Of a stretch of 64,000 nucleotides of DNA, positions 14,891-60,968 are shown piece after piece. The DNA comes from a virus. The notes beneath the pieces were generated by a model that saw only the letters and a program-made list of their open reading frames with translations, had not been told where the DNA came from and ran no database searches. The stretch's first letter is position 1. The number at the start of each line of letters is the position of its first letter. A program made the translations under genes and the position numbers. The DNA lies in the IMG/VR virus record IMGVR_UViG_3300021440_000014, positions 32,001 through 96,000 of that record; one strand, given 5' to 3'.

Positions 14891-16698
14891 TAGTCTTTCT
14901 TGATTATAATTTCAAATTTTCCTTTTCCAAAAATCGTTTCTGGCGCAGGAGTTGGATCTACTACGGGTGGGGGTTCCTGTGTTCCTCCAGAAGAAGCGGG
15001 TGGATTTACTCCATAAACATATCTATATCCTGCTGGAATATTTGTTGGCGAAAAATTAGGATTAGAAGGATCGTATGGGGGCCATTTTAGGAAACCGAAA
15101 GAAGAAGGTTTGCTAGTGAGATAAAAGCTATCAGGAATTACTTTGCTAGTAGTATCTACGACATTATTAGGGTGCCAAGTTTGACCTGAGCCAGCTATCG
15201 TATCATTTGTCCTATAGCACCAATTGCCCCATCTAATCATAGTAATCAAAGTAGAAGGATCATAGCTTGTTGCCCCACTTCCTAGGCTATTATAGCCTAT
15301 TTTCCAAATAGAAGAAATAGAACTGCTATAAGGAGCAGGCTCTCCATTAATTAATTCGTAATTTCCCTCTTGGACTTCCGTTCCGCCAAGTAAATTACCA
15401 ATGAAAGACCAATACCAATTACGTCTTTCAACGTCTACTGTCCAAGTTTGTGCGTCATCTGCGCCTCTATCTATCTGGCAAATTCTATTTCTCAACGCAG
15501 TGAAATGAGAGCTTGTTCCCCAATACTCGTCTGCCCTGATACGTCCGCCACTCCAATTTCCTTCTATAAGATTCATCATGGGGTGAGGACCATGCATAAG
15601 CGGGCCAAAGCGTCTCGGGCTATCTCCAGTATTAGACCACCAAATATTTGTAATAAAATTATAGCTGAAAACATTACCAGAAGAGTTACCCTCCCAGCAC
15701 ATACCCATCGTAAGTTTTTCGAGAATATTGTCAGTAATTAAACATGCGGTCGCGTGTGGGCCAAGAAAAGGAGCATAAGATCTATCGCTAATATAAGCTC
15801 CGCTATTATCTGTTCCTACGGGGCGACCCTCATGAATTAAACATCCATTAATTTCGAACCATAGCGCATTATAAACCCAATAAGATCTTCTATCTATACC
15901 TCTCACTTCTATGTTCTTTGTCCAGCAATTAACTGCCCCAAAAACGCCTACGTTGTCTCTAACCCTAACTGGATGACCATTTAGCGACAAATCCTCTGCT
16001 CCAGCATACTCTGTGATTCCTGTCATTTTTACTCCCTGCGGAGAATTTGCGTAGCTCCAGTAAAGAGGGGGACTAAATGTAACGCTTGTTGGAGAAACTA
16101 CTGACGTAATTTTGACAAGTTGACCAACGCATCTTCTGCCTGAGTCTCTACCTACCCAATTAGCAGAACCTAAAGAGCCAGCATGATCCATTGGGGGGTT
16201 TCCGGCTGGCTGCTCTAACATATCAAAAAGAACTAAATCTCCAGTCACCCATCCATGTGCTGTAGTTGTGCTAATTGTATCACTATCTTTAACGGCTGAT
16301 ACTATAGATTTGGCGGGTTGACTCCAACTTTCATCAAAATTATTATCGAAAGAAATAATAGTGCTTCCAGAAAAGGCTGCGGCAGGTTGAAGGATAGTAT
16401 TACTAATTCCCGCCCCCCTCAAAGTAACTTTACTTGGGATTACTAGAGTCGAAGAAAGATTATAAGTTCCAGAAGATAATTGAACTACCTGATTTTGAGG
16501 ACAAGTATCTAATGCCGATTGAATTTCTGCTTTCGTCGCTCCAGCAGCAATAGTTTTAAAAATTACTGTTCTATTGGGGATTCCGCCTCTAACTCCAGCG
16601 TCCCAATTGATTCTATAAGAAGGAGGAAGAATTTCGCTTAAGCAACTGAAAGCGAAAAACATAAAAATAATAAAAATGGTAAATCTGATTTTGTTCAT
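14890..16698 (-). CDS. Secreted beta-helix protein, copy C2
   Basis: Signal peptide; shares HGPHP.MNLIEGN and RADEYWGTS with C1/C3; Pro-rich C-terminal linker. Confidence 0.8.
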   Translation of the reverse strand: MNKIRFTIFIIFMFFAFSCLSEILPPSYRINWDAGVRGGIPNRTVIFKTIAAGATKAEIQSALDTCPQNQVVQLSSGTYNLSSTLVIPSKVTLRGAGISNTILQPAAAFSGSTIISFDNNFDESWSQPAKSIVSAVKDSDTISTTTAHGWVTGDLVLFDMLEQPAGNPPMDHAGSLGSANWVGRDSGRRCVGQLVKITSVVSPTSVTFSPPLYWSYANSPQGVKMTGITEYAGAEDLSLNGHPVRVRDNVGVFGAVNCWTKNIEVRGIDRRSYWVYNALWFEINGCLIHEGRPVGTDNSGAYISDRSYAPFLGPHATACLITDNILEKLTMGMCWEGNSSGNVFSYNFITNIWWSNTGDSPRRFGPLMHGPHPMMNLIEGNWSGGRIRADEYWGTSSHFTALRNRICQIDRGADDAQTWTVDVERRNWYWSFIGNLLGGTEVQEGNYELINGEPAPYSSSISSIWKIGYNSLGSGATSYDPSTLITMIRWGNWCYRTNDTIAGSGQTWHPNNVVDTTSKVIPDSFYLTSKPSSFGFLKWPPYDPSNPNFSPTNIPAGYRYVYGVNPPASSGGTQEPPPVVDPTPAPETIFGKGKFEIIIKKD

Positions 16699-16766
16699 AT
16701 AAGTATTATAATAATTAAAGTATGTAATATATACTTTTTTACACTATTTTAGGGATAATCAATAGA

Positions 16767-18596
16767 TTACCTGTCCATAGATTTTATATTAGGTCTTCCT
16801 TTACCATTTATGACTCTAATGTTTCCAGTTGATAGCCCAGATCCAGAACCCCCTCCACCCCCGCCTCCTTCTTGAGGGGGATTCCCTAGTCCAAAAGCTC
16901 TCCAAGCCGCAGGAAGATTAGTAGCAGTATTCATTGCTAAAGATCTAGTAGGATCAAACGGTGGCCAACTTAGCCCAGCAAAATTAGTTGGTTTAGCACT
17001 AAGATAAAATGAGTTAGTTATAGTAGTGTAAGAAGTATCTAAAACGCTGTTCGTGTGCCAAACTTGACCACTACCACTTATGCTATCATTAGTTCTGTAA
17101 GTCCAGCAGCCCCAACGAATTGTATTTGTCCATACATAAGGATCATAATTTGCACTGGTATTGCCTAAACTTTCATAGCCCAACTTCCAAATTGTTGCAG
17201 TTCCTTCTGAAAAAGATTCGCCTAATATGTATTCATAATTGCTTTCGTTGACACCGGGAGCACCACCTGCAACTTCGCCAAGAAACACCCAATTGCGGTT
17301 GTTTCTTTCAATGTCGTAAGTCCAAGCTTGTTGGGCGGGCGAACCTCTATCAACCTGAAGAACTCTATTGCGTAAGCTTACAAAACTATCTGAAGTTCCA
17401 AAGTATTCGTCTGCCCTTGTTCTGCCAGCAAGCCAATTGCCTTCAATAAGGTTTAAAGTAGGGTGAGGTCCGTGCATCAATACTGCAAAGCGGCGAGGAG
17501 GATCAGTGTTTGCGTCCCACCAGATATTAGTAGTATAATTATAAGAAAATACATTACCAGAAGCAGCACCTTCAAAAGATATCGCCATAGTAACCTTTTC
17601 TATCCAATTATCTGTAATTAAACCTGCGGAGCAGTGCGGACCAAGAAACCCACCATAGGCACGTTCGCTAGTATACTGCGCGTCATTATCATTTCCTACC
17701 GGAATACCTCCTTCAATATGGTTTGCTGAAATTGTTGGCCACAAAGCTCCATAAACCCAATATGCTCTAGATTTTATACCTCTTATATGGCACCTAGTAA
17801 CCCAACATTCTATGGCTCCTTGCCATTGAGTATTATGATCTATGGTTAAAGAGCTATTAGCGATAGTTACATCTTCCACTCCAGCCCTGTGAACTAATCC
17901 AGTTATTTTCGCTGACTGAGGGGAATTACTATAGCTACTATAAAAAGGAGGATCTATTTGAAATACAGTAGTAGATACAATATTTGTAATTTTAGATACT
18001 TGACCATTAGGGCGGTTTCCTACCGCCGCTGGTCTTCCGCAGTAATTACAATCTCCAAGTGTCCCTCTATTCCTGATAGGCTTTAAATTAGAAGTATTAG
18101 TAACTTGATCTATTATGACATAATCGCCTGCGCTGTAACCATGAGCCACGGAAGAGGTTGCATTCACGCTACCTTTTACTGGAGTGACTAAATCTCTTAT
18201 TGGTCCACTATCCCAATGGTAGCTATAACCATTATCAAACATTACTATTGTATTTCCTGAAAAAGTAGGAGCATTAGTCAATATAGTTACTCCCATGCCA
18301 GCCCCTCTTAAAGTCACGCCATCTTTACTCATCTCTATACTAGCAGAAAGAGAGTAAACTCCAGCAGATAAAAGGACTACTTGGTTCGATGGACACGCAG
18401 CTATAGCAGCATTAATTGTTGCTGCTGAAGCACCAGATACTATTGTGGTATAAATCGTTTGACGATCTGGAATGCCCCCTCTAACCCCCGGATTCCATTC
18501 TATAATTCTTTCATCTGGAATTATGGGCGAAAAGTTCTGAGATAGAGCATTAAAACAAAATGCTAATATAAATAAAATTGAAAATATTTTTTTCAT
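16767..18596 (-). CDS. Secreted beta-helix protein, copy C1
   Basis: Signal peptide; same family; poly-Gly linker and basic tail. Confidence 0.8.
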   Translation of the reverse strand: MKKIFSILFILAFCFNALSQNFSPIIPDERIIEWNPGVRGGIPDRQTIYTTIVSGASAATINAAIAACPSNQVVLLSAGVYSLSASIEMSKDGVTLRGAGMGVTILTNAPTFSGNTIVMFDNGYSYHWDSGPIRDLVTPVKGSVNATSSVAHGYSAGDYVIIDQVTNTSNLKPIRNRGTLGDCNYCGRPAAVGNRPNGQVSKITNIVSTTVFQIDPPFYSSYSNSPQSAKITGLVHRAGVEDVTIANSSLTIDHNTQWQGAIECWVTRCHIRGIKSRAYWVYGALWPTISANHIEGGIPVGNDNDAQYTSERAYGGFLGPHCSAGLITDNWIEKVTMAISFEGAASGNVFSYNYTTNIWWDANTDPPRRFAVLMHGPHPTLNLIEGNWLAGRTRADEYFGTSDSFVSLRNRVLQVDRGSPAQQAWTYDIERNNRNWVFLGEVAGGAPGVNESNYEYILGESFSEGTATIWKLGYESLGNTSANYDPYVWTNTIRWGCWTYRTNDSISGSGQVWHTNSVLDTSYTTITNSFYLSAKPTNFAGLSWPPFDPTRSLAMNTATNLPAAWRAFGLGNPPQEGGGGGGGSGSGLSTGNIRVINGKGRPNIKSMDR

Positions 18597-36419: not shown

Positions 36420-38255
36420 TTACTTTATAAAAATTGGAGCAAAACTATAATTAATATCTTCCTGCACCACATTATTCATATTATTATATATCTTCATGCC
36501 CCAAACTCCCAACATTAATGTTGTATAGTTATCTTTTCTTGCCCTATTAGGATCTTTACTCTTTTTAAGATGGGATGGAAGCTCAAAAGTAAGGTGGCCT
36601 CTAGCTGAGGTTTTAACTTCTATAAGAGCGCACTGCTTTTTTACTGAATGTATTAGCTCATCTTGGTAGTCTATTAATTCCCCAACATCTTTAAAGTCCG
36701 TTAACTCCAAAGGAACTCTAGAACTGCTAACTTTTTCGAAAATAGAGCCGTCAGGATTTATTTTTGAGCCAAACCATATCTTTTTATAATCTATAGCTGC
36801 CTGTAGGTTCTCATTACCTCTTCTTACAAACTCTACAGAGAAATGCTGTTTAATACAAATTCTTCTAGCTTCCCTGTTATAAGATCTTTTTACCTTTTTC
36901 ACCATTTCCTCATACTCAACACCTTCCAAGTCAGAGTCCCATTCTTCTATAAATTTTAATTCTATTTTATTCTTAATGGCAACATCGCTATTATTAAAAC
37001 TTGGAATAAAATTTCCATCTGCTGAGTCTGTAACAATTAAAATAGGATCGAATGCCTCAAGTAAATAATAGAAATAGTCCAAATGGTCCTTTAAGTCGCC
37101 ACCGGCATTTGCATAGTTGTGAACAACTGTTCCTATTTCTGGATTTTCGTCTATTTCTATGACTGCCATAGCAAAATAATCAGCCGCTTGGCTGTTGCTC
37201 AAGTTAGGATCAATTGATAAAATATATTTTTTGTTCTTTTCTCCTATTAGCTTAAGGTGAGGATATTCGCCATCTGGAATCGTGCATTCTTGCATCTTTT
37301 TCGCACTGAAATAACCATCACTTCCGTCTGTAAATTGAGCGCAATACTCTCTAAGGAAAGAAGGGTTTTCTAAGCCACCAGACATAGCCTCTTCAATGAC
37401 TGATTTTTCCACCATGTATGAAGGAATAGCATTAAAAGCAATTTGAGAAACAAAATAGGTAGACTCTCTTTTTTGATCGTCATATATATTTGCCATCCAC
37501 TCCTTATAAGTTTTATAAAGGTTCTCAAAAGTAAAACTCGCAGAAGAAAGGGCTATCATTTGTGCCGTATTACCAAATACAGTCCTATCTGACTCCTTCA
37601 TTTCTCCTGACGCTATTAATTCACTTTCTATTTCTATTATCTCCTGTCTTTCTCCGATGTTCTGAGGAGCCACTAAGAAGGGAAGTAAAACGTTTTTAAT
37701 CATTTCTTCACTTAGTAGCAAAAATTCGTCAAGGATTAGAACATTACATCTAAAACCACGAATCTTTTCTCCGTTTAATGGAATGGCTACAATAGATCCA
37801 CCATTGACACTCCAAGAAAGCAAGTCATTTCTATGGGCGGGTTCATTACAGAAAGCCTGCGCGAGCAATTTAGCGTTTGGGCTATTAACTATCTTTTCTA
37901 GTTCTGTAAAAATATTTCTAGCCGTTCTAAAAGTAGGACCAGCTATGAGTATTTTAGTTCTTGGCTCAAATATACATTTTAAAAAGCAGTATATAGCCGC
38001 CATTGTGCTTTTACCGGCACCACGTCCCCATACATTTAAACAGTAGTTCCTATTAAACCAAGCTTTAAGAATTATCTCTTGATATTCTGCCGGTCTAAAT
38101 CCACTTAGTATTTCAGTGGCAAGTCCCAGATTGTTTCTTAGAAAATTAGCAAGAAAAATTTTAGCATCCTTATCAGAAAGCTCTCCTTTTATCTTCAGAA
38201 ACTCTTCGTTTTTATCAGGAAGGTTTCTTTTATATTTTTCTGGTTCATACCACAT
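36420..38255 (-). CDS. terL: Terminase large subunit
   Basis: YQ adenine motif, Walker A GRGAGKS, Walker B VLILDE, RNase H-like SIDP and terminal KD. Confidence 0.92.
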   Translation of the reverse strand: MWYEPEKYKRNLPDKNEEFLKIKGELSDKDAKIFLANFLRNNLGLATEILSGFRPAEYQEIILKAWFNRNYCLNVWGRGAGKSTMAAIYCFLKCIFEPRTKILIAGPTFRTARNIFTELEKIVNSPNAKLLAQAFCNEPAHRNDLLSWSVNGGSIVAIPLNGEKIRGFRCNVLILDEFLLLSEEMIKNVLLPFLVAPQNIGERQEIIEIESELIASGEMKESDRTVFGNTAQMIALSSASFTFENLYKTYKEWMANIYDDQKRESTYFVSQIAFNAIPSYMVEKSVIEEAMSGGLENPSFLREYCAQFTDGSDGYFSAKKMQECTIPDGEYPHLKLIGEKNKKYILSIDPNLSNSQAADYFAMAVIEIDENPEIGTVVHNYANAGGDLKDHLDYFYYLLEAFDPILIVTDSADGNFIPSFNNSDVAIKNKIELKFIEEWDSDLEGVEYEEMVKKVKRSYNREARRICIKQHFSVEFVRRGNENLQAAIDYKKIWFGSKINPDGSIFEKVSSSRVPLELTDFKDVGELIDYQDELIHSVKKQCALIEVKTSARGHLTFELPSHLKKSKDPNRARKDNYTTLMLGVWGMKIYNNMNNVVQEDINYSFAPIFIK

Positions 38256-41506: not shown

Positions 41507-41824
41507 ATGAAGCCATTTTTAGAATATAAAAATGCAGAAGGGGTAAAATACGCAATGTATTTTAAGAAACCTACTATCGTAAAATATAAAAATAAGAAAA
41601 GGATAGTTACTGAATTAGATGGTAGCTGCGAGTCTCCAGATTGCAAAAATCCAGAAATAAATATAAATAAAAAGCTAGGAGACAGAAGGGAAATGGCAGT
41701 AATAATTGAAGAGATAGTCCATTCTTTCTTTTTTGATAAACTCGAAAAAGAAGTAAGACCTTTGGCTAGTGTAATAACCAAGGTCTTATACAAAAAAGGA
41801 TGGAGAAAAAAGAAACTTAAGTAA
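41507..41824 (+). CDS. Hypothetical protein, minimal zincin-like
   Basis: GxC...I.I..KL...IIEEIVH (degenerate HExxH); + strand GTGTAA at 41493-41498. Confidence 0.5.
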   Translation: MKPFLEYKNAEGVKYAMYFKKPTIVKYKNKKRIVTELDGSCESPDCKNPEININKKLGDRREMAVIIEEIVHSFFFDKLEKEVRPLASVITKVLYKKGWRKKKLK

Positions 41825-42539
41825 GTGGAGTATTATTTAATTTACCTACTATAAATTTAACGATTTCACTTCTTACAATATCTTCCTGTTCTAACTTAAA
41901 GCAGAATATACCGTTTTTACGACTCTCTTCATCATTAAAAAGATTTATCATTTTAAAGAATCCAGATTTTCCATTGATATCAGATTGGAAACTGTCTCCG
42001 CAGACTATAAGTTTAGAGAACTTTCCTATTCTTGTTAAAAGAGTAACAAGTTCTTTATATTCGAAGTTTTGAGCCTCGTCCGCAAACAAATAATTCGCAT
42101 TAAAGCTGCACCCTCTAAGATAGTTAACAGGTATAGCTCTAACTCTTTCATCTTTAATTAAACCATCCACTTCTCCCTTTGATAAAAACTCGTCTAGCTT
42201 TTCCTGTAAAGGAGTAATAAAAGGTTTAAACTTATCACAGAATTCGCCGGGGAGATAACCCAATCCTTTTGCGGCACTTTCAATGACAGTTCTAAAGTAG
42301 ATGATTTCTGATATCTTTTTATCAGAAAGCATTTGTAGCCCACAATACGTAGATAAGAAAGTCTTGCTTGTGCCCGCGACTCCATCAATAAATACAACTT
42401 TAGTATCCTTATCTAAAATGCATTTTATTATTTCTTGCTGTTTTGAAGTCCAGTCGTAGAGTTTCCTTATGGTGAGTGATGTTTTAAGTTTGTCCCTTTG
42501 CGGGATTCTTACATTTCCAGAAGCGTCTTTTTTAGACAT
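41817..42539 (-). CDS. phoH: PhoH-family ATPase (start revised to ATG 42539)
   Basis: GVAGTSKT, LGYLPG, YLRG, DEAQN, LLTRIG, GDSFQSD, DIVRS. Confidence 0.95.
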   Translation of the reverse strand: MSKKDASGNVRIPQRDKLKTSLTIRKLYDWTSKQQEIIKCILDKDTKVVFIDGVAGTSKTFLSTYCGLQMLSDKKISEIIYFRTVIESAAKGLGYLPGEFCDKFKPFITPLQEKLDEFLSKGEVDGLIKDERVRAIPVNYLRGCSFNANYLFADEAQNFEYKELVTLLTRIGKFSKLIVCGDSFQSDINGKSGFFKMINLFNDEESRKNGIFCFKLEQEDIVRSEIVKFIVGKLNNTPLT

Positions 42540-42552
42540 ATCTATTAATATA

Positions 42553-42978
42553 TTACACCCTATCCTCTTGGTTTTCAATTCTTTTTTGACTGTCGCCGGG
42601 AAGAACCCTATAGGAGTCCTCATCAAAATGTTGAGTGGAAAATTCAGCAATTATTCCATAATCTTTACTTCCAGTGTCTAAACATTCCAATTGATGCGGG
42701 CATCCAACAGGAATATCTACAACATCTCCATCATAAATTATTTTCTCTTTTTTCTCTGCCGTATCTGTATCTAAATAGTATAATCTAAACTTTCCATTGA
42801 TAACGTAGAATGTCTCAGATTTTAATACATGAAAATGTAAAGAGAATTTTGCTCCCTTTTTGAAATTCAATATTTTACCGCAATAGGATTCATTATTCTC
42901 TATCCAAATTTCGTTACCCCATTCTTTAGGAACAACTTTTCTCGGGAGTCTTACAGAGCATTTTTTATGTATTTCCAT
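42553..42978 (-). CDS. Cupin (sugar isomerase-like)
   Basis: VPKEWGNE, SLHFHVLKSETFYV, PHQL and EFST motifs of D-lyxose/mannose-6-P isomerase-type cupins. Confidence 0.8.
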   Translation of the reverse strand: MEIHKKCSVRLPRKVVPKEWGNEIWIENNESYCGKILNFKKGAKFSLHFHVLKSETFYVINGKFRLYYLDTDTAEKKEKIIYDGDVVDIPVGCPHQLECLDTGSKDYGIIAEFSTQHFDEDSYRVLPGDSQKRIENQEDRV

Positions 42979-45337: not shown

Positions 45338-45459
45338 ATGTTGGTTTAAAATCTCGGGGACGTTTAGAACTACCCCCTCCCCCGAATTTTTCACCCCTTG
45401 TCAAGCAAAAAATTTCATAAAAAGGCGGGGGGACTCCCCCCCCGTTGGCATACTTTCTG

Positions 45460-45702
45460 CTAGGCGATGTCCGCCATGTCTAGGATAGCGTCTTCCCGCA
45501 TTTCCCGTGCCAACCGCTCGGCTTTTTTCTCAAGTTTCTTTTGGTTGTCGCGCACCCATTGGCACGCTTCTTGCTTGTCGCATCCTTCAAAGTCGGCAAC
45601 CGAAAATTGCCAACCGTTCACTTCACACGCGAAAGCCTCTATCTCAATTGCGACTTGCTTATCGTCCGCGCCGATGTTCGTTTCAATGAAGATGTTCAAC
45701 AT
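45460..45702 (-). CDS. Hypothetical early protein
   Basis: TTGACG...TAGAGT promoter ends 6 nt before the ATG. Confidence 0.7.
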   Translation of the reverse strand: MLNIFIETNIGADDKQVAIEIEAFACEVNGWQFSVADFEGCDKQEACQWVRDNQKKLEKKAERLAREMREDAILDMADIA

Positions 45703-45905
45703 GGAATGACTCTATCACATAAAATCAATTCGTCAACAAATGAATTTACCTGATTATCAAGCACTTACGTATAATGTGCTAAATTTCGTTTCAAGCGTTC
45801 GGCAATGCCGATCCTTGTCTCATTAGGCAATGCGGGCAAACGTGCCTAGAAACTAAAGGGAGCGGGCAAGGCTAGGCAATGCCTAACCTGCCCACACTCC
45901 ACGAT

Positions 45906-46310
45906 CTACCCTCTGCAAAGGTGGGCGATGTCGCTATTTTCCCAATTAGGCGACGACGGGCGGATCTCCTTAGCTTTAGGAACAAGGGCAACAAGGGAGG
46001 GGATCGCATCCTCCCGCACTAAGGGCAGGATTTGTTTCCAGTAGCGTGGAGCTTTCCTCAAAACGATTTGATTCATCTTAGTAGAGAAGAATCCCTTGCG
46101 CTCAATACGTTGTGCAAATGACGTTAGGATCTCGGCATCGCATCCAGTGAAGCCGATTCCATTAGCGTCGGACGTGATCGCCGCACATTGCTCGCCTAGC
46201 GTTTGATTGCCATACACGATCAAGATCGCCATTTTAGCGAACGCCAGATCGGTGGACAATTTAAGTTTCAAACCCTGTTCGACTTGCTTTTTCGTATATG
46301 CTTTTGCCAT
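45906..46310 (-). CDS. Hypothetical phage protein
   Basis: VYGNQT..EQ...NGIGFTGCDA..LTSFA pattern; followed by a hairpin. Confidence 0.75.
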   Translation of the reverse strand: MAKAYTKKQVEQGLKLKLSTDLAFAKMAILIVYGNQTLGEQCAAITSDANGIGFTGCDAEILTSFAQRIERKGFFSTKMNQIVLRKAPRYWKQILPLVREDAIPSLVALVPKAKEIRPSSPNWENSDIAHLCRG

Positions 46311-46399
46311 AGTCCAGACAATTTATATGCGGAAATAAAATTAGGCAAGAAATTTTTTACGTTTCATGCCTAACTTGTTGATTTACAGGATAATAAAAA

Positions 46400-46780
46400 T
46401 CATCCCCAGCTTAATCCTTCAGACACGAAAACGAGCAAACGCAGGGTTGCCGCGTCCTTTGGATCACGTTGATTGTTAAAATGTTGACGCAAGATTTCAA
46501 CGCATTTCTCAAAGTCATTGCATGATCCGCTCACAGGGTCAAACCCCATACGTTGCAACGTGTTGCAAACTGTCTTGCCCCACCCATTCAAAAGAAAGTT
46601 GTCCAGATTGCCAAGGTTGCCATCGATGTTGCCATAGATAGCGTTATACTCATCCTCACCATAAGGATCGTTAAATTGCGCTTTGATAGCGTTTAGCTTG
46701 TTAGTCGTGCCCATAGGGACGCCCGCAAGGGTTTCGAGGTTGTTGGTTTTGCTAGTAGCAGGATAGAGGCGCGTTCCCAT
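46400..46780 (-). CDS. Hypothetical early protein (MGTRLYP...)
   Basis: A-rich leader (AACAAACAAACAAAAC) precedes the internal ATG. Confidence 0.65.
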   Translation of the reverse strand: MGTRLYPATSKTNNLETLAGVPMGTTNKLNAIKAQFNDPYGEDEYNAIYGNIDGNLGNLDNFLLNGWGKTVCNTLQRMGFDPVSGSCNDFEKCVEILRQHFNNQRDPKDAATLRLLVFVSEGLSWG

Positions 46781-46870
46781 AGTGTTTTGTTTGTTTGTTG
46801 TTTCTATTAACTGCAATCAATTTATCAGATCACAAAAGAAACGCAATCCTTTTCTCTCTTTTTCTCAAAA

Positions 46871-46920
46871 TAAATTTTTATGCCATCTAAATAATTATTC
46901 TTACTTGGCACAATACTAGC
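46871..46920. promoter_or_regulatory. TGCCA-N20-TGGCA palindrome 1 (sigma54-like half-sites)
   Basis: TGCCA 46881, TGGCA 46906; right half TTGGCACAATACTAGC is GG-N10-GC. Confidence 0.7.
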
Positions 46921-47102
46921 GTAGCGTGTCCTCCCCTTTAGGGTGTCCCGTGGTCCCCCACCCTTCGCGTGTTACCGCTAGTCCGGCTATTCGTGTCGCC
47001 GCCACGTATGATTTAATTTTTACTGTCGATAGACTAGCAAGGGAAAAGAAAAAAGGCAAGAGAATTTTTCAATTCAATTGCCTTGAATACCAACGGGTTG
47101 CG

Positions 47103-47336
47103 TTAATTCGCGAATGGGTCGATAGTTATAATGTTTTTATTCGTATCTAATTGCCAAGCACCAAACAAACCCCAATTGATCAATTCTTGACAAAAGCAAG
47201 AAACAAGATCTTGAGCGCAACTGTCGTCTCGAAAAGTTACGATCACTGTCTTGCGGTGAATCAAGTCGATATCCAGACCAACTTTGTAAATTTCGGCCAA
47301 TCGTTTTGTTTGCCAAAGTGCTTCGATTAAGTTCAT
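47103..47336 (-). CDS. Hypothetical early protein
   Basis: TTGACT...TAGTAT promoter just upstream. Confidence 0.6.
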   Translation of the reverse strand: MNLIEALWQTKRLAEIYKVGLDIDLIHRKTVIVTFRDDSCAQDLVSCFCQELINWGLFGAWQLDTNKNIITIDPFAN

Positions 47337-47395
47337 GGCAAGACAATACTAGAGGCGAAAAACAAAGTCAAAACTTTTCTCACTTTTTTCTAAAA

Positions 47396-47445
47396 TAAAA
47401 ATTCATGCCAAGCACGAAATAAATCGCACTTGGCACGAAAATTGT
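47396..47445. promoter_or_regulatory. TGCCA-N20-TGGCA palindrome 2
   Basis: TGCCA 47406, TGGCA 47431. Confidence 0.7.
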
Positions 47446-47853
47446 TTAGCTGTGGAAATAGGAAAAGATCTCAATTTTTCCGCTTTCCATGACATACCAT
47501 GACCAAAAAAGAAAAACTCCAGATCCGCAGTTTATATTCTGCGAACCATTCTTTTGATTGCCCTCAAAAATTTGATCGTAGAATCCAGCCGAGCTAAGTC
47601 CGGCATCGTTCAAAACTTTTGAGATCTTTTCAATGAATTGTTCCGTTGAATCGAAGTAGATCGGGTCGGTAATTTCCGCCAAGCTTTTATTCAAGCGGCG
47701 AACAAGGATCGAAAGCGTGGACACCTGCTGACATTTGATACGCTGAAGAATGCCGTTGCACACTTCCGAAGTTTGAGGCTTTGAATAAATCATATCGGCC
47801 AATGCCGCGCTGATGGTTGAAATCTCTTTTGCGCTCAATTGAATGTTTAACAT
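47446..47853 (-). CDS. Hypothetical early protein
   Basis: 135-aa ORF ending SWYVMESGKIEIFSY. Confidence 0.7.
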   Translation of the reverse strand: MLNIQLSAKEISTISAALADMIYSKPQTSEVCNGILQRIKCQQVSTLSILVRRLNKSLAEITDPIYFDSTEQFIEKISKVLNDAGLSSAGFYDQIFEGNQKNGSQNINCGSGVFLFWSWYVMESGKIEIFSYFHS

Positions 47854-47987
47854 GTGCTCAATTTATCAAGGGCCAATTAAAAAAGCAACGATAGAATTTT
47901 GTAAAAAATCGCATTAAATTAAAAGTTGGCGCGAAAATTGTTTTAAAAAATTGTTGACTTGCGCTCCCTTTGTGTTAATCTTAGCGC

Positions 47988-48059
47988 GTGAACGGGACGC
48001 CGCAGCCACTAAATTCTAAGGGAACCTGATCAAAAACTTTAACGTTATCGTAAAAAAGT
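47988..48059 (+). ncRNA. Repeated small RNA candidate, copy 1
   Basis: TTGACT-16-TAATCT promoter, then GAACGG..CCGCAGCC..AAATTCTAAGGGAACC..CTTTAACG. Confidence 0.6.
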
Positions 48060-48098
48060 AAAGGAAAACCCTCTTTCGAGGGAATTCCTGCTTGACTT

Positions 48099-48248
48099 TT
48101 AAGTTGTGACAAGATCCTGTTCGGTGAAAAACTTTTCAGCCTGTTGATCGAGCCACGCCTCGAATTCCGTTGTTTCTTCCGGCGTCATTTTTGCCAGCGT
48201 GGAGATTTCGTCTTGAGCGTCGATAGATTCAAATTGATTGATATTCAT
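48099..48248 (-). CDS. Small acidic protein (49 aa)
   Basis: Hand translation MNINQFESIDAQDEISTLAKMTPEETTEFEAWLDQQAEKFFTEQDLVTT. Confidence 0.6.
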   Translation of the reverse strand: MNINQFESIDAQDEISTLAKMTPEETTEFEAWLDQQAEKFFTEQDLVTT

Positions 48249-48310
48249 TACGGGTAAAATTTAACGTGCCCATAATAGAATAGCAATAAAAATCGTATTT
48301 TATCATAAAA

Positions 48311-48360
48311 TAAATTTTCATGCCATTCTATAAATAAAAATGACTTGGCACAAAGATTGC
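48311..48360. promoter_or_regulatory. TGCCA-N20-TGGCA palindrome 3
   Basis: TGCCA 48321, TGGCA 48346; TTGGCACAAAGATTGC is a near-perfect sigma54 -24/-12 site. Confidence 0.75.
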
Positions 48361-48465
48361 TATCAAAAATAGTTTCAAAAATAATCAAAAAACTCTTGCG
48401 CTCCTTTTGTGATCTGCTAGGATGTTCTCCGTTAAGCGAAACAACAACAAAGCAAAACAAAAAAA

Positions 48466-48939
48466 ATGAACACTGAAACAAAGCAAATTCTCGCGGAAAT
48501 GGGATTCAACGTTGGTTCTGTCCTGAATGTTCGCCGATCTCCTTTTCTAGGGTTAGAATTGACAATTCGGCCAAATGGAACGGGCACCGTCGTTTTTTGC
48601 AACGGTGGATTGAGCGAGTATCTTTTTCTTGCTCAATATGGCGCGGTGAAACCGCCAGTGAACGACGACGATGAAAGCATTCTTGAGAACATCAAAACCG
48701 TTGCTAATGGCATTCCCTACTTGACGATATCAAAATACAAATTTTTGCAAGTTCTCGAAGCAATGGCATTCAATCGGCTTTGCTTGACTGGCGCGGACAA
48801 AGGCAAAAAAGGAGGTTCGGTAGCTAAGTCTAAACGTCTCGCCGCTCTTTGGTTCAAACGTATCCCAAAGGAGGAAAACGAATTTTACAACGCGAAAGTC
48901 ACGACGGACGCAATGGAATCTGAGCTTATCGCCAGCTAG
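48466..48939 (+). CDS. Hypothetical early protein
   Basis: A-rich leader; hairpin terminator at ~48959-48990. Confidence 0.7.
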   Translation: MNTETKQILAEMGFNVGSVLNVRRSPFLGLELTIRPNGTGTVVFCNGGLSEYLFLAQYGAVKPPVNDDDESILENIKTVANGIPYLTISKYKFLQVLEAMAFNRLCLTGADKGKKGGSVAKSKRLAALWFKRIPKEENEFYNAKVTTDAMESELIAS

Positions 48940-49032
48940 AAACGTGCCAAACCAAAAGGAAAGCCCGAAATAAAAATCGGGCTTTCTTTCCTTTTCTATT
49001 GACTCCGCGCAAAGATTTGATATAGTCATGAC

Positions 49033-49108
49033 GTGAACGGTAAACACTCCGCAGCCACGAAATTCTAAGGGAACGTATCCAAAAGCTTTAACGATAACTT
49101 GATAAAGT
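49033..49108 (+). ncRNA. Repeated small RNA candidate, copy 2
   Basis: TTGACT-16-TATAGT promoter; same conserved core. Confidence 0.6.
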
Positions 49109-49170
49109 AGATTTTACAAAAAAAGTATTGACAAACGACTTTTTATTAGTTGTCAAGTCTTTTATGAAAA

Positions 49171-49220
49171 ACAATTACTGTGCCAACCATAGAAAGAATC
49201 GCGCTTGGCATGAAATTTGT
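49171..49220. promoter_or_regulatory. TGCCA-N20-TGGCA palindrome 4
   Basis: TGCCA 49181, TGGCA 49206. Confidence 0.7.
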
Positions 49221-49271
49221 TTTTTAGATTTTTATTGCCTATCATCAAATGCCTGCTATTATAGGGACGTA

Positions 49272-50165
49272 ATGAAAAACAACGTCGCTGAAATCATCGC
49301 CGATAAATTTATCGAAGCGATCAAAGCAAGCGGAAAATTGCCTTGGCAAAAACCTTGGCGCGTAATTAGTCCGCGTAATGCCGTCTCTGGTAATGTTTAC
49401 AAAGGGATCAACGTTCTAGCGTTGTCCATGTTTGGAAACGATACCGACTTTGTGACATTCAACCAAGCAAGGGATAACGGCGGATTTGTTAAAAAGGGAA
49501 GCAAGGGAATTCAAATTTGCTATTTCAAATTCATGGACAAAAAAGACGAAAAGGGATCGCCTGTCATTGTTGGCGGTAAAGTTAGCAAATGGCCATTGTT
49601 GCGATATTCGACAGTATTTAATCTTTCGGACATTGAAGGATGCGAAAAGCTCAAGGCAAAAGCATTGGAGCGAAAGAAAGTTATCGAATTCAAACCTATC
49701 GAAGCTTGCGAAAAGCTTGCTGCATTTGCGCCTTGCGCCGTATCGCACAAAGGGAATTCAGCTTTCTATTCGCCTGCCGTTCATGCAATAACAATGCCCG
49801 AAAAAGAGACTTTTAAGAGTGTTTCTCATTATTATTGCACGTTGTTTCATGAAATCGGACATTCAATGGCGCGAGAAGTTGGAACGGATTTGAACGGCCA
49901 ATTTGGGAGCGATCCGTATGCAAAGGAGGAACTTGTGGCCGAATTATTTGCCAACCTTTGCTTGTCGTTTGCTGGTATCGACTCAAGCGATCTTTTCGAT
50001 AACTCCGCAGCATATTTGCAGAACTGGCAAAAGCGGATCACTGACGATGCCACGATCCTTATTTCGGCAGCAAGCAAGGCAAGCAAGCGATTTGAATTGC
50101 TTTTAGAGCGGGCAGGACTCGCCGAAAAACAGGAAAGCGAGGAAAGCGAAACGGCAGCAGCCTAA
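49272..50165 (+). CDS. ardC: ArdC-like antirestriction/ssDNA-binding protein with zincin domain
   Basis: PWQKPW, N..SG..YKGIN, TFNQA..GG.VKKGSKG, VFN, AFYSP, HEIGH, YAKEELVAE, SAAYLQNW; start revised to ATG 49272. Confidence 0.92.
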   Translation: MKNNVAEIIADKFIEAIKASGKLPWQKPWRVISPRNAVSGNVYKGINVLALSMFGNDTDFVTFNQARDNGGFVKKGSKGIQICYFKFMDKKDEKGSPVIVGGKVSKWPLLRYSTVFNLSDIEGCEKLKAKALERKKVIEFKPIEACEKLAAFAPCAVSHKGNSAFYSPAVHAITMPEKETFKSVSHYYCTLFHEIGHSMAREVGTDLNGQFGSDPYAKEELVAELFANLCLSFAGIDSSDLFDNSAAYLQNWQKRITDDATILISAASKASKRFELLLERAGLAEKQESEESETAAA

Positions 50166-59975: not shown

Positions 59976-60968
59976 ATGGCTCATAAAATCAACAAACGCG
60001 ACATTCAAACCGGACTCACTCAAGCGTGGCATGGCAAGACTAACCTTGTGGAAAAGATTACCCGCGAGAATAGCGGCATCGTTTATCCCATGAGCAAGCA
60101 ACCTCTCTTGCTTCCCAACAAGACAGAAACGGAACATTTTGCAATCGTTAGCGACGACGACGGTTTGCCAATTGGTAATCCTGTTAAAAAGGGTTACAAG
60201 CTCATTACTAATGAGCAGATGCTTGACATTATCGACAAAACCATTGCCGGAACAAGTCACCAAATTGTTTCCATCGGTTCCGTTAGTAATCGCGAGAAAG
60301 TTTTCGCCTCGATTAAGGTATCAGATGATTTCATCGCGGCGGGACGCAAGACAGAGAATACCCTAAACATTCTTTGGGGTCATGGCGGTGTGTTCAGCGT
60401 CATGGGTCGTTCTAGCTTTACTGTCGTCGTTTGCGCGAATACCTTTCAAATGGCTTTGGTTACGGGCGGAAAAGATTTTGCCTTTCGCATGAAGCATACC
60501 GGCAACGCTGTATTGAAACTGGATAACTTCTCAGAAGCTCTCGATTCACATTACGGCGTAGTTGCTGAATTCCGCGCAGCAATGGAAGAGTTTTCTAATA
60601 CTTCCATTTCTAAAGTTGATGCAAAACGCGCAATTGCAGGCTTTCTTGTCGAAGACGAAAAGCTTAATCAAATGCAGAAATTGCCTACTCGAACAACTAA
60701 CGTCATTGAGCGCGTCAATCAGTTGTTTACTGGTGGTCCCGGTAACAAGGGCGAAAATCTTGCTGACTTGTTCAATGGTTTTACTGATTACTATACCCAT
60801 GAAAGCTCTGGAATTGGTAGTGGCGGGAAAGATAACTGGAAACAGTTTGAATCATCGGAATTCGGAAGCGCGAATCGTAAGAAAATGGAAGTCTTCGATC
60901 TTCTCTCTGATTCCGATGCTTTTAATAAGACACTTGTGCGCGGCGACAAGGTTTTGCAGCTAATGTAA
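59976..60968 (+). CDS. DUF932-family phage/plasmid protein
   Basis: AWHG, YKLITNEQ, VVCANT, MKHT, LFNGFTDYYTH, FGS. Confidence 0.85.
   Translation: MAHKINKRDIQTGLTQAWHGKTNLVEKITRENSGIVYPMSKQPLLLPNKTETEHFAIVSDDDGLPIGNPVKKGYKLITNEQMLDIIDKTIAGTSHQIVSIGSVSNREKVFASIKVSDDFIAAGRKTENTLNILWGHGGVFSVMGRSSFTVVVCANTFQMALVTGGKDFAFRMKHTGNAVLKLDNFSEALDSHYGVVAEFRAAMEEFSNTSISKVDAKRAIAGFLVEDEKLNQMQKLPTRTTNVIERVNQLFTGGPGNKGENLADLFNGFTDYYTHESSGIGSGGKDNWKQFESSEFGSANRKKMEVFDLLSDSDAFNKTLVRGDKVLQLM

Follow-up and report, generated by a model that had tools for sequence, protein, structure and literature searches.

Back-to-back sigma-54-type sites in a conserved early-region cassette of an uncultured phage: candidate paired docking sites for host RNA polymerase

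The stretch of DNA analyzed here (64,000 nt, referred to as the window) comprises bases 32001-96000 of G000, a 172,010-bp phage record of the IMG/VR database (IMGVR_UViG_3300021440_000014; 35% GC) rated complete by CheckV; all coordinates given below are window positions. Its early region contains a cluster of palindromes of the form TGCCA-N20-TGGCA, whose halves, read outward, resemble the -24/-12 promoter sites of sigma-54. As shown in Table 1, a long head/tail/packaging block lies on the minus strand to the left of this region, and the cumulative GC skew has its turning point at ~44-45 kb. Six small minus-strand genes follow, and then the first plus-strand genes, including one for an ArdC-like anti-restriction protein. 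The small open reading frames were called in this analysis; most of the early-region proteins encoded here are of no known function, and an Rfam scan of 44.5-51 kb found nothing relevant. The ArdC-like gene, together with a DUF932 gene (59976-60968), is reminiscent of the gene content of plasmid leading regions.

Five exact matches to TGCCA-N20-TGGCA are present in the window, compared with 0.04 expected (none of 100 shuffled sequences reached five). All lie within 2.3 kb, there are no others in the whole 172,010-bp genome, and the reversed pattern, used as a control, has no match in the genome. Four of the five are intergenic (P1 at 46881, P2 at 47406, P3 at 48321 and P4 at 49181), exactly as listed in an earlier note made from the sequence alone (the original prediction). 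The fifth, which that note had not listed, overlies the start of gene 47103-47336 (47311-47340); its halves are not sigma-54-like (below 9 bits with the matrix described below), and it is probably a chance match. Outward-read halves fit TGGCAY-N5-TTKH eight times (1.7 expected). The TGGCA box is perfect in all eight halves of P1-P4, and the -12 parts vary: TTGC at 48346(+), TAGC at 46906(+), TTGT at 47431(+), 49206(+) and 49185(-), and TTTA in the leftward halves 46885, 47410 and 48325, which are copies of one cassette. The original prediction had graded the halves in the same way. When the single sites are included, GG and GC separated by 10 nt are fully kept at 48346(+), 45560(+), 45512(-), 46906(+), 48949(-) and 45446(+), and GT takes the place of the -12 GC at 47431(+), 47927(+), 49206(+) and 49185(-).

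The whole genome was then scanned with a weight matrix built solely from sites of related phages, which had themselves been chosen by a pattern. Eleven hits of at least 15 bits were obtained, eight of them between 45512 and 49206. Shuffles of local composition predict 0.084 such hits in these 3.9 kb and, for hits of at least 18 bits (five found), 0.009. The remaining genome is near background, with three hits of at least 15 bits against ~1.6 expected for the whole genome. Both the genome-wide clustering and the excess over shuffled DNA, which had been proposed as checks, are therefore borne out. The single sites reported earlier at 45446(+), 47927(+; with GGCG) and 48949(-) were recovered, but that list had missed two strong sites within gene 45460-45702, namely 45560(+) and 45512(-), with scores of 21.9 and 16.7 bits.

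Table 1. Genes, sigma-54-type sites and sigma-70-type promoters in and around the early region (window positions).
Feature	Position	Strand	Remarks
Head/tail/packaging block (long)	left of early region	-	
Terminase gene	36420-38255		in head/tail/packaging block
PhoH-like gene	41817-42650		in head/tail/packaging block
AAA protein gene	43599-44744		matches general AAA family PF00004 only
Single site	45446..45460	+	TGGCAT-N5-CTGC, 9.6 bits; antisense to gene 45460-45702(-)
Small gene	45460-45702	-	
Two strong sites within gene 45460-45702(-)	45498..45574		back to back, 47 nt apart
Site of this pair	45498-45512	-	16.7 bits; sense in 45460-45702(-)
Site of this pair	45560-45574	+	perfect match, 21.9 bits; antisense in 45460-45702(-)
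Small gene	45906-46310	-	
Small gene	46400-46780	-	
Sigma-70-type promoter of 46400-46780	46819..46846	-	-35-like box 39 nt after T of P1 left-half TGGCA
P1 left half	46871-46885	-	TGGCAT-N5-TTTA, <9 bits; 105 nt upstream of ATG of 46400-46780(-)
P1 pair	46881..46910		TGCCA-N20-TGGCA
P1 right half	46906-46920	+	TGGCAC-N5-TAGC, 13.8 bits
Small gene	47103-47336	-	
Sigma-70-type promoter of 47103-47336	47343..47371	-	TTGACT, 17 nt, TATTGT; -35 39 nt from P2 left half
P2 left half	47396-47410	-	74 nt upstream of ATG of 47103-47336(-)
P2 pair	47406..47435		TGCCA-N20-TGGCA
P2 right half	47431-47445	+	21.6 bits; antisense to gene 47446-47853(-)
Small gene	47446-47853	-	
Single site	47927..47941	+	TGGCGC-N5-TTGT, 18.6 bits; 27 nt upstream of the -35 box (47954) in the sigma-70-type promoter that serves a small-RNA copy
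Small gene	48099-48248	-	
Sigma-70-type promoter of 48099-48248	48259..48286	-	-35-like box 39 nt from P3 left half
P3 left half	48311-48325	-	9.8 bits; 77 nt upstream of ATG of 48099-48248(-)
P3 pair	48321..48350		TGCCA-N20-TGGCA; divergent intergenic region
P3 right half	48346-48360	+	TGGCAC-N5-TTGC, 19.2 bits; 120 nt upstream of ATG of 48466-48939(+)
Sigma-70-type promoter of 48466-48939	48396..48423	+	TTGCGC, 16 nt, TAGGAT; 50 nt from P3 right half
First plus-strand gene after small minus-strand block	48466-48939	+	
Single site	48935..48949	-	TGGCAC-N5-TAGC, 17.4 bits; antisense to gene 48466-48939(+)
P4 left half	49171-49185	-	15.4 bits; faces back to hairpin and small-RNA copy ~49033-49100
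P4 pair	49181..49210		TGCCA-N20-TGGCA
P4 right half	49206-49220	+	18.6 bits; 66 nt upstream of ATG of ArdC-like 49272-50165(+)
Sigma-70-type promoter of ArdC-like gene	49235..49262	+	TTGCCT, 16 nt, TATTAT; 29 nt from P4 right half
ArdC-like anti-restriction gene	49272-50165	+	

A scan of IMG/VR with a DNA pattern for the pair returned 95 stretches, only ~20 of which represent the cassette; with a gap of 21 nt, the pattern gave 11 hits, all of them unrelated, which serve as a control. About three quarters belong to one coding-sequence family in prophages of 30-37 kb and are irrelevant to it: in these (L031-L125, ~75 loci, isolate genomes) TTTATGCCA-N18-CTTGGCACG marks conserved coding sequence, and the matches vary at third codon positions; they are a false-positive class of the motif search. 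Genes proved to be poor anchors. A search for relatives with the small genes between pairs (48466-48939 and 47446-47853) found nothing, the ArdC-like gene led to unrelated elements (among them L005, 61% GC, no motif) and the AAA gene to distant contigs devoid of the motif.

The cassette is carried by five related uncultured phage contigs (G001-G005). Four of them (G001, G002, G003 and G005) have capsid, portal-region, terminase, nuclease and PhoH genes in common with G000, with 30-55% identity and in the same order; G004 has other genes in common with it. The sites of G001-G003 are located in a small-gene region past the PhoH end of the head/packaging module, and the single pair of G005, at the contig end, likewise lies past PhoH. 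The DUF932 gene is common to G002, G003 and G004, and in the latter (89370-90331) it has a 20-nt pair on either side. Matches to TGGCAY-N5-TTGY number 34 in G002, 30 in G003, 4 in G001 and 7 in G004, with none for the reversed control. Alignment of all 20-nt pairs, anchored on TGCCA, showed them to be copies of a single homologous cassette; its flanks are conserved, and its spacer, conserved in part, retains a partly conserved AATCGC repeat across the relatives. The small genes that separate the cassettes differ between G000 and G001, with no conservation; therefore, the cassette outlives its genes. Genomes G002 and G003 are collinear and 89-96% identical, and differ in cassette copy number and by a replaced segment (16569-17300) bounded by pairs.

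The identity of the sites was derived from 46 distinct copies in G002 and G003, whose cassettes are partly duplicates. At positions left free in the search pattern, the values obtained were 0.97 for T before TGG, 0.91 for G after TGGCAC and 0.93 for T after TTGC, which gives the consensus TTGGCACG-N4-TTGCT. The sigma-54 consensus has been written TGGCAC-N5-7-TTGCT (PMC12316311). The consensus of the relatives thus equals that of sigma-54 over all 16 bp, and the asymmetric -12 element TTGCT is part of the agreement. Taken together, site consensus, clustering and conservation strongly support the view that the halves represent back-to-back sigma-54-type -24/-12 sites, as the original prediction had suggested. 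Since complete sites also stand alone (45446, 47927, 48949 and 45560), the recognized unit would be the asymmetric 16-bp -24/-12 site, not the palindrome. A single perfect site of this type was also observed in a marine relative (L148 1271-1300; contig C12 of the metagenome-assembled genome (MAG) G006), located 14 nt ahead of the ATG of a gene whose product begins like a signal peptide.

Back-to-back gaps were taken from all matrix hits, with no spacing assumed. G000 (three pairs above threshold) and G001 (two pairs) have gaps of 20, and G004 has gaps of 20 (twice) or 21 (once); in G002 and G003 the gap is 9 (21 times) or 20 (10 times), with a few strays of 24 and 63-66. The spacing in the relatives is therefore not variable: it is constant at 20, and a second class, at 9, is shorter by 11 bp, approximately one helical turn. 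A census of IMG/VR for perfect pairs with any gap of 0-30 (perfect TTGC required in both halves) yielded at least 120 stretches, which were clustered into 93 groups. Among the matches listed, the clusters fall into discrete windows of gap length: none at 0-4, 36 at 5-10, 2 at 11-14, 36 at 15-21, 2 at 22-25 and 17 at 26-30. The strongest period, again for the 93 clusters of the matches listed, is 10-10.5 bp (vector strength 0.52; p < 5e-5, 0 of 20,000 uniform resamplings). Same-direction pairs, likewise among the matches listed, show exclusion below ~24 nt, start to start, and no comparable periodicity (0.16). Both gaps of the present clade, 9 and 20, sit in allowed windows of the census. Because the gap follows the helix, both halves would be occupied at the same time on duplex DNA. 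Some unrelated IMG/VR contigs were found to carry three or four perfect pairs (gap ~10) in tandem every 47 nt (e.g. L155 3441-3621); L161, L166, L172, L181, L184 and L188 are also contigs of this kind, with dense tracks of alternating sites.

By sequence reading, the gene-facing halves are positioned 66-120 nt before start codons, and sigma-70-type promoters lie between these halves and the genes; the statement in the original prediction that the neighboring genes have such promoters is plausible. The distance from the T of TGGCA to the start of the -35 box is 39 nt in all three leftward halves, 27 nt for 47927(+), 29 nt for P4(+) and 50 nt for P3(+). In the relatives it is 29 and 39 nt (G004) or 41 nt (G002). 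These offsets differ by about one turn, in a few cases that are partly copies of each other and with -35 boxes called in this analysis. Sigma-70-type promoters are enriched genome-wide (27 vs 5.4 expected), and the ATG often follows the -10 box by 6-9 nt (6 nt for gene 47103-47336), which suggests leaderless early mRNAs. They form a family composed of TTGACA, an A-rich spacer and TAGRAT (e.g. 50208, 51426, 51743, 53809(-), 58396 and 61925).

In rows of genes on the same strand, the half that fits sigma-54 better is the one facing back: P1(+) with 13.8, P2(+) with 21.6 and P4(-) with 15.4 bits. P4 is exceptional in that its gene-facing half is also strong (18.6 bits). In minus-strand rows the back-facing half outscores the gene-facing one, which has TTGT in the relatives and TTTA in G000; the back-facing halves of G001 and G002 have a perfect TTGC. 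Three back-facing sites touch the stop codon of the preceding gene: 47431(+) ends one base before TAA (47446-47448) of gene 47446-47853, the last base of 45446(+) overlaps the TAG stop of 45460-45702, and 48949(-) overlaps TAG (48937-48939) of gene 48466-48939. In G002, four sites lie 16-30 nt from the 3' end of a gene. The P1 right half faces a GC-rich (~60%) untranslated stretch directly downstream of it (46920-47045) and the 3' end of gene 47103-47336.

Both intergenic regions of the minus-strand gene row that have no TGCCA-N20-TGGCA pair are filled by palindromes of the opposite polarity, TAGGCA...TGCCTA (45824-45848, 45873-45885 and 46342-46372; gaps of 13, 1 and 19). These three are the only ones in the 172-kb genome, and they may represent a second operator type or decayed cassettes.

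The potential of the pairs to form RNA structures differs from copy to copy. Read on the minus strand, P2 is a hairpin of 16 bp (-25.6 kcal/mol, z -8.2) with a U tract behind it, located directly after a stop codon, and it is likely to be an intrinsic terminator. The fold of P1 is marginal (z -2.6), those of P3 and P4 do not surpass shuffled sequence, and the GC-rich stretch after P1 (46928-47045) has no significant RNA structure on either strand. In G001, an identical 80-nt GC-rich segment with a hairpin follows both of its perfect halves. Every cassette of G002 contains a ~60-nt hairpin that starts and ends with GGGGCCCC (L126 13440-13540) and is flanked by two face-to-face sigma-54-type sites, either of which would start transcription inside the stem.

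No cultured relatives were found (terminase identity of 25% or less). A terminase relative (57% identity) is located on a 77-kb contig binned in a Flavobacteriales MAG, and 35 of 40 window genes have no Shine-Dalgarno motif upstream, their leaders being A/T-rich. The Flavobacteriales bin and the missing Shine-Dalgarno motifs are weak hints of a Bacteroidota host; the phage promoters, which belong to the TTGACA/TAGAAT type instead of that of Bacteroidota, count against it. Flavobacteriia have been reported to run chaperone genes from sigma-54 promoters (PMC12316311). The AAA protein was considered as a possible phage-encoded activator but discarded, since it lacks a sigma-54 interaction domain and none of G001-G005 has it.

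We are evenly divided on whether the pairs are docking sites for the host sigma-54 RNA polymerase holoenzyme within one conserved early-region cassette, acting as a poised, activator-dependent two-way promoter/boundary module, but this is the interpretation that we prefer. Among bacterial sigma factors, only sigma-54 binds stably to DNA without initiating transcription. The holoenzyme would dock on both halves at once, as stable closed complexes. The identity, clustering, conservation, fixed spacing, helical phasing and gene positions of the sites are shown by the present data; this binding and the double occupancy are inferred. Each pair, located a short distance before the sigma-70-type promoter that serves the next early gene, would form a poised two-way module that depends on an activator. 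Its gene-facing half would provide the gene with another promoter, a conditional one; the back-facing half, whether firing or just bound, would oppose the neighboring transcription unit and so separate adjacent gene cassettes, which it could also couple via antisense transcription or supercoiling. Such an effect of supercoiling is known from the dmp system of Pseudomonas, where a strong sigma-54 promoter (Po) back to back with a weak sigma-70 promoter (Pr) drives the latter (PMC5175336). In Yersinia pseudotuberculosis, mutation of antisense RpoN sites lowered expression of the sense genes (PMC7657599). A broader idea, which we regard as tentative and rather doubtful, is that sigma-54 pairs form a distinct and widespread class of phage DNA elements, in which two host polymerases are parked back to back in helical register as architectural or boundary devices and not as ordinary promoters; insulation, supercoil barriers and capture of polymerase or sigma-54 are possible roles of such parked pairs.

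Several observations weigh against the docking-site interpretation. No sigma-54 gene was found in G000-G005 (Sigma54_DBD was searched in all six, and Sigma54_CBD also in G000); therefore, if sigma-54 reads the sites, it is that of the host, whose possession of rpoN is an assumption. Nor was any sigma-54 activator domain (PF00158) found in G000-G005, or any enhancer-like upstream site or repeat recognized there; an activator of the host may take this part. The three gene-facing halves 46885, 47410 and 48325 are poor sigma-54 sites, with TTTA and not the -12 GC; the best sites face away from genes, which is odd for plain promoters, and every gene examined already has a sigma-70-type promoter of its own. 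For P2, an ordinary terminator hairpin would, in theory, be an explanation as well. Finally, in Escherichia coli RNA-seq, genes overlapped by silent sigma-54 sites were not measurably affected by them (PMC4591121).

The notion that a short palindrome has clustered by chance where GC is locally higher is refuted by the counts, including those against shuffles of local composition, and by the retention of the cassette in five other contigs, even if one of the five palindromes (47311) is probably fortuitous. The missing activator and enhancer would suit a purely silent role, in which the sites hold sigma-54 polymerase without firing and thereby soak up scarce host sigma-54 as phage copy number rises, or block read-through. 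The original prediction had proposed a decoy or roadblock of this kind. Such a role would also agree with the strongest halves facing oncoming transcription and touching stop codons, with the G002 sites close to gene 3' ends, with helical phasing, which fits tight packing of bound polymerases, and with the dense arrays on other phage contigs, which look more like docking tracks than promoters. Nevertheless, we consider it unlikely. The sites are real, but several points weigh against the proposed function: this genome has only ~13 sites, for which a decoy role is possible but unsupported, the E. coli RNA-seq data argued against roadblock repression by bound sigma-54 polymerase (PMC4591121), and the fixed offsets to sigma-70-type promoters, together with the distances to start codons, look like regulatory promoter architecture.

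The sites might instead be read by another DNA-binding protein, encoded by the phage or the host, either as a dimeric operator (of a phage protein, according to the original prediction) or through a phage factor mimicking sigma-54 specificity. This we consider improbable. The perfect TGGCA boxes of P1-P4 beside variable -12 parts, the fixed gap with its AATCGC repeat and the many early proteins of no known function would be in keeping with it. A simple dimeric operator is nevertheless disfavored by the single complete sites, by the conserved -12 parts outside the palindrome, asymmetric TTGCT included, and by the occurrence of two gap classes in one clade and of a wide, phased range of gaps across other phages. 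Moreover, none of the early proteins accompanies the cassette throughout G000-G005, the common genes being those for head/packaging, lysozyme-like and DUF932 proteins; a search for a shared regulator among proteins near the sites in cassette-bearing relatives found only the last two and no DNA-binding regulator. Distinctly improbable, in our judgment, is a primary role in RNA or recombination, to which the likeness to sigma-54 sites would be secondary, with hairpins that terminate or stabilize early transcripts, or cassettes that shuffle in the manner of the early promoter and stem-loop cassettes (PeSLs) known to drive modular shuffling (PMC2839356). The strong P2 hairpin, the ability of the 9-nt pairs of the relatives to form ~16-bp stems (on our reading) and the replaced segment and differing copy number in G002 and G003 point in this direction. 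However, P3 and P4 fold like shuffled sequence and P1 only modestly better, and hairpins need neither the conserved 16-bp motif nor single copies. The 10.5-bp periodicity of the gaps is a property of proteins on duplex DNA and is not expected of RNA hairpin loops.

Phage use of sigma-54 is close to undescribed in the literature searched. The unit is compact, conserved and testable (two sites, a 20-bp gap and a nearby sigma-70-type promoter), and its helical phasing across many uncultured phages constitutes a general rule that predicts which gap lengths would allow double occupancy. If these are true polymerase docking sites, phages would be using a host factor in a new manner, to wire or insulate early genes that evolve fast; synthetic biology could also adopt the pairs as compact parts, either two-way or insulating.

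Among known systems, bacterial RpoN promoters (e.g. glnAp2 and pspA) have the same 16-bp -24/-12 motif, down to the flanking T and to the G and T that follow TGGCAC and TTGC, respectively, in the relatives, and the distances of the phage sites to start codons are compatible with promoters. Unlike them, the sites are phage-borne, have no activator gene or upstream enhancer that could be found, occur in outward-facing pairs only 9 or 20 bp apart and are joined with a sigma-70-type promoter for the same gene; many face gene 3' ends, and some halves lack the -12 GC. Sites detected by chromatin immunoprecipitation sequencing in E. coli (PMC4591121) and Y. pseudotuberculosis (PMC7657599) likewise include sigma-54 sites that are non-classical, among them silent, intragenic and antisense ones. 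However, these chromosomal sites are scattered singles with no fixed partner or spacing, whereas those of the phage are paired, phased, intergenic and conserved as a cassette. In the dmp Po/Pr arrangement (PMC5175336), as in the phage, a weaker sigma-70-type promoter lies close behind a strong sigma-54 site that is directed away from it, which offers a tested way for backward sigma-54 firing to raise forward sigma-70 output. The dmp regulon has one such pair, a cognate activator (DmpR) and binding sites for it, whereas in the phage copies of the unit lie between many small genes and a further sigma-54-type half, facing the gene, is part of it. The PeSLs of the T4-type phages RB49 and phi1 (PMC2839356) are likewise short repeated regulatory cassettes between small non-essential early genes, and join an early sigma-70-type promoter with a stem-loop. 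The phage cassette may be of similar design, with sigma-70-type promoters but, in G000, a convincing terminator hairpin only at P2, and the differences between the close relatives G002 and G003 map at the cassettes; PeSLs have no sigma-54-type boxes.

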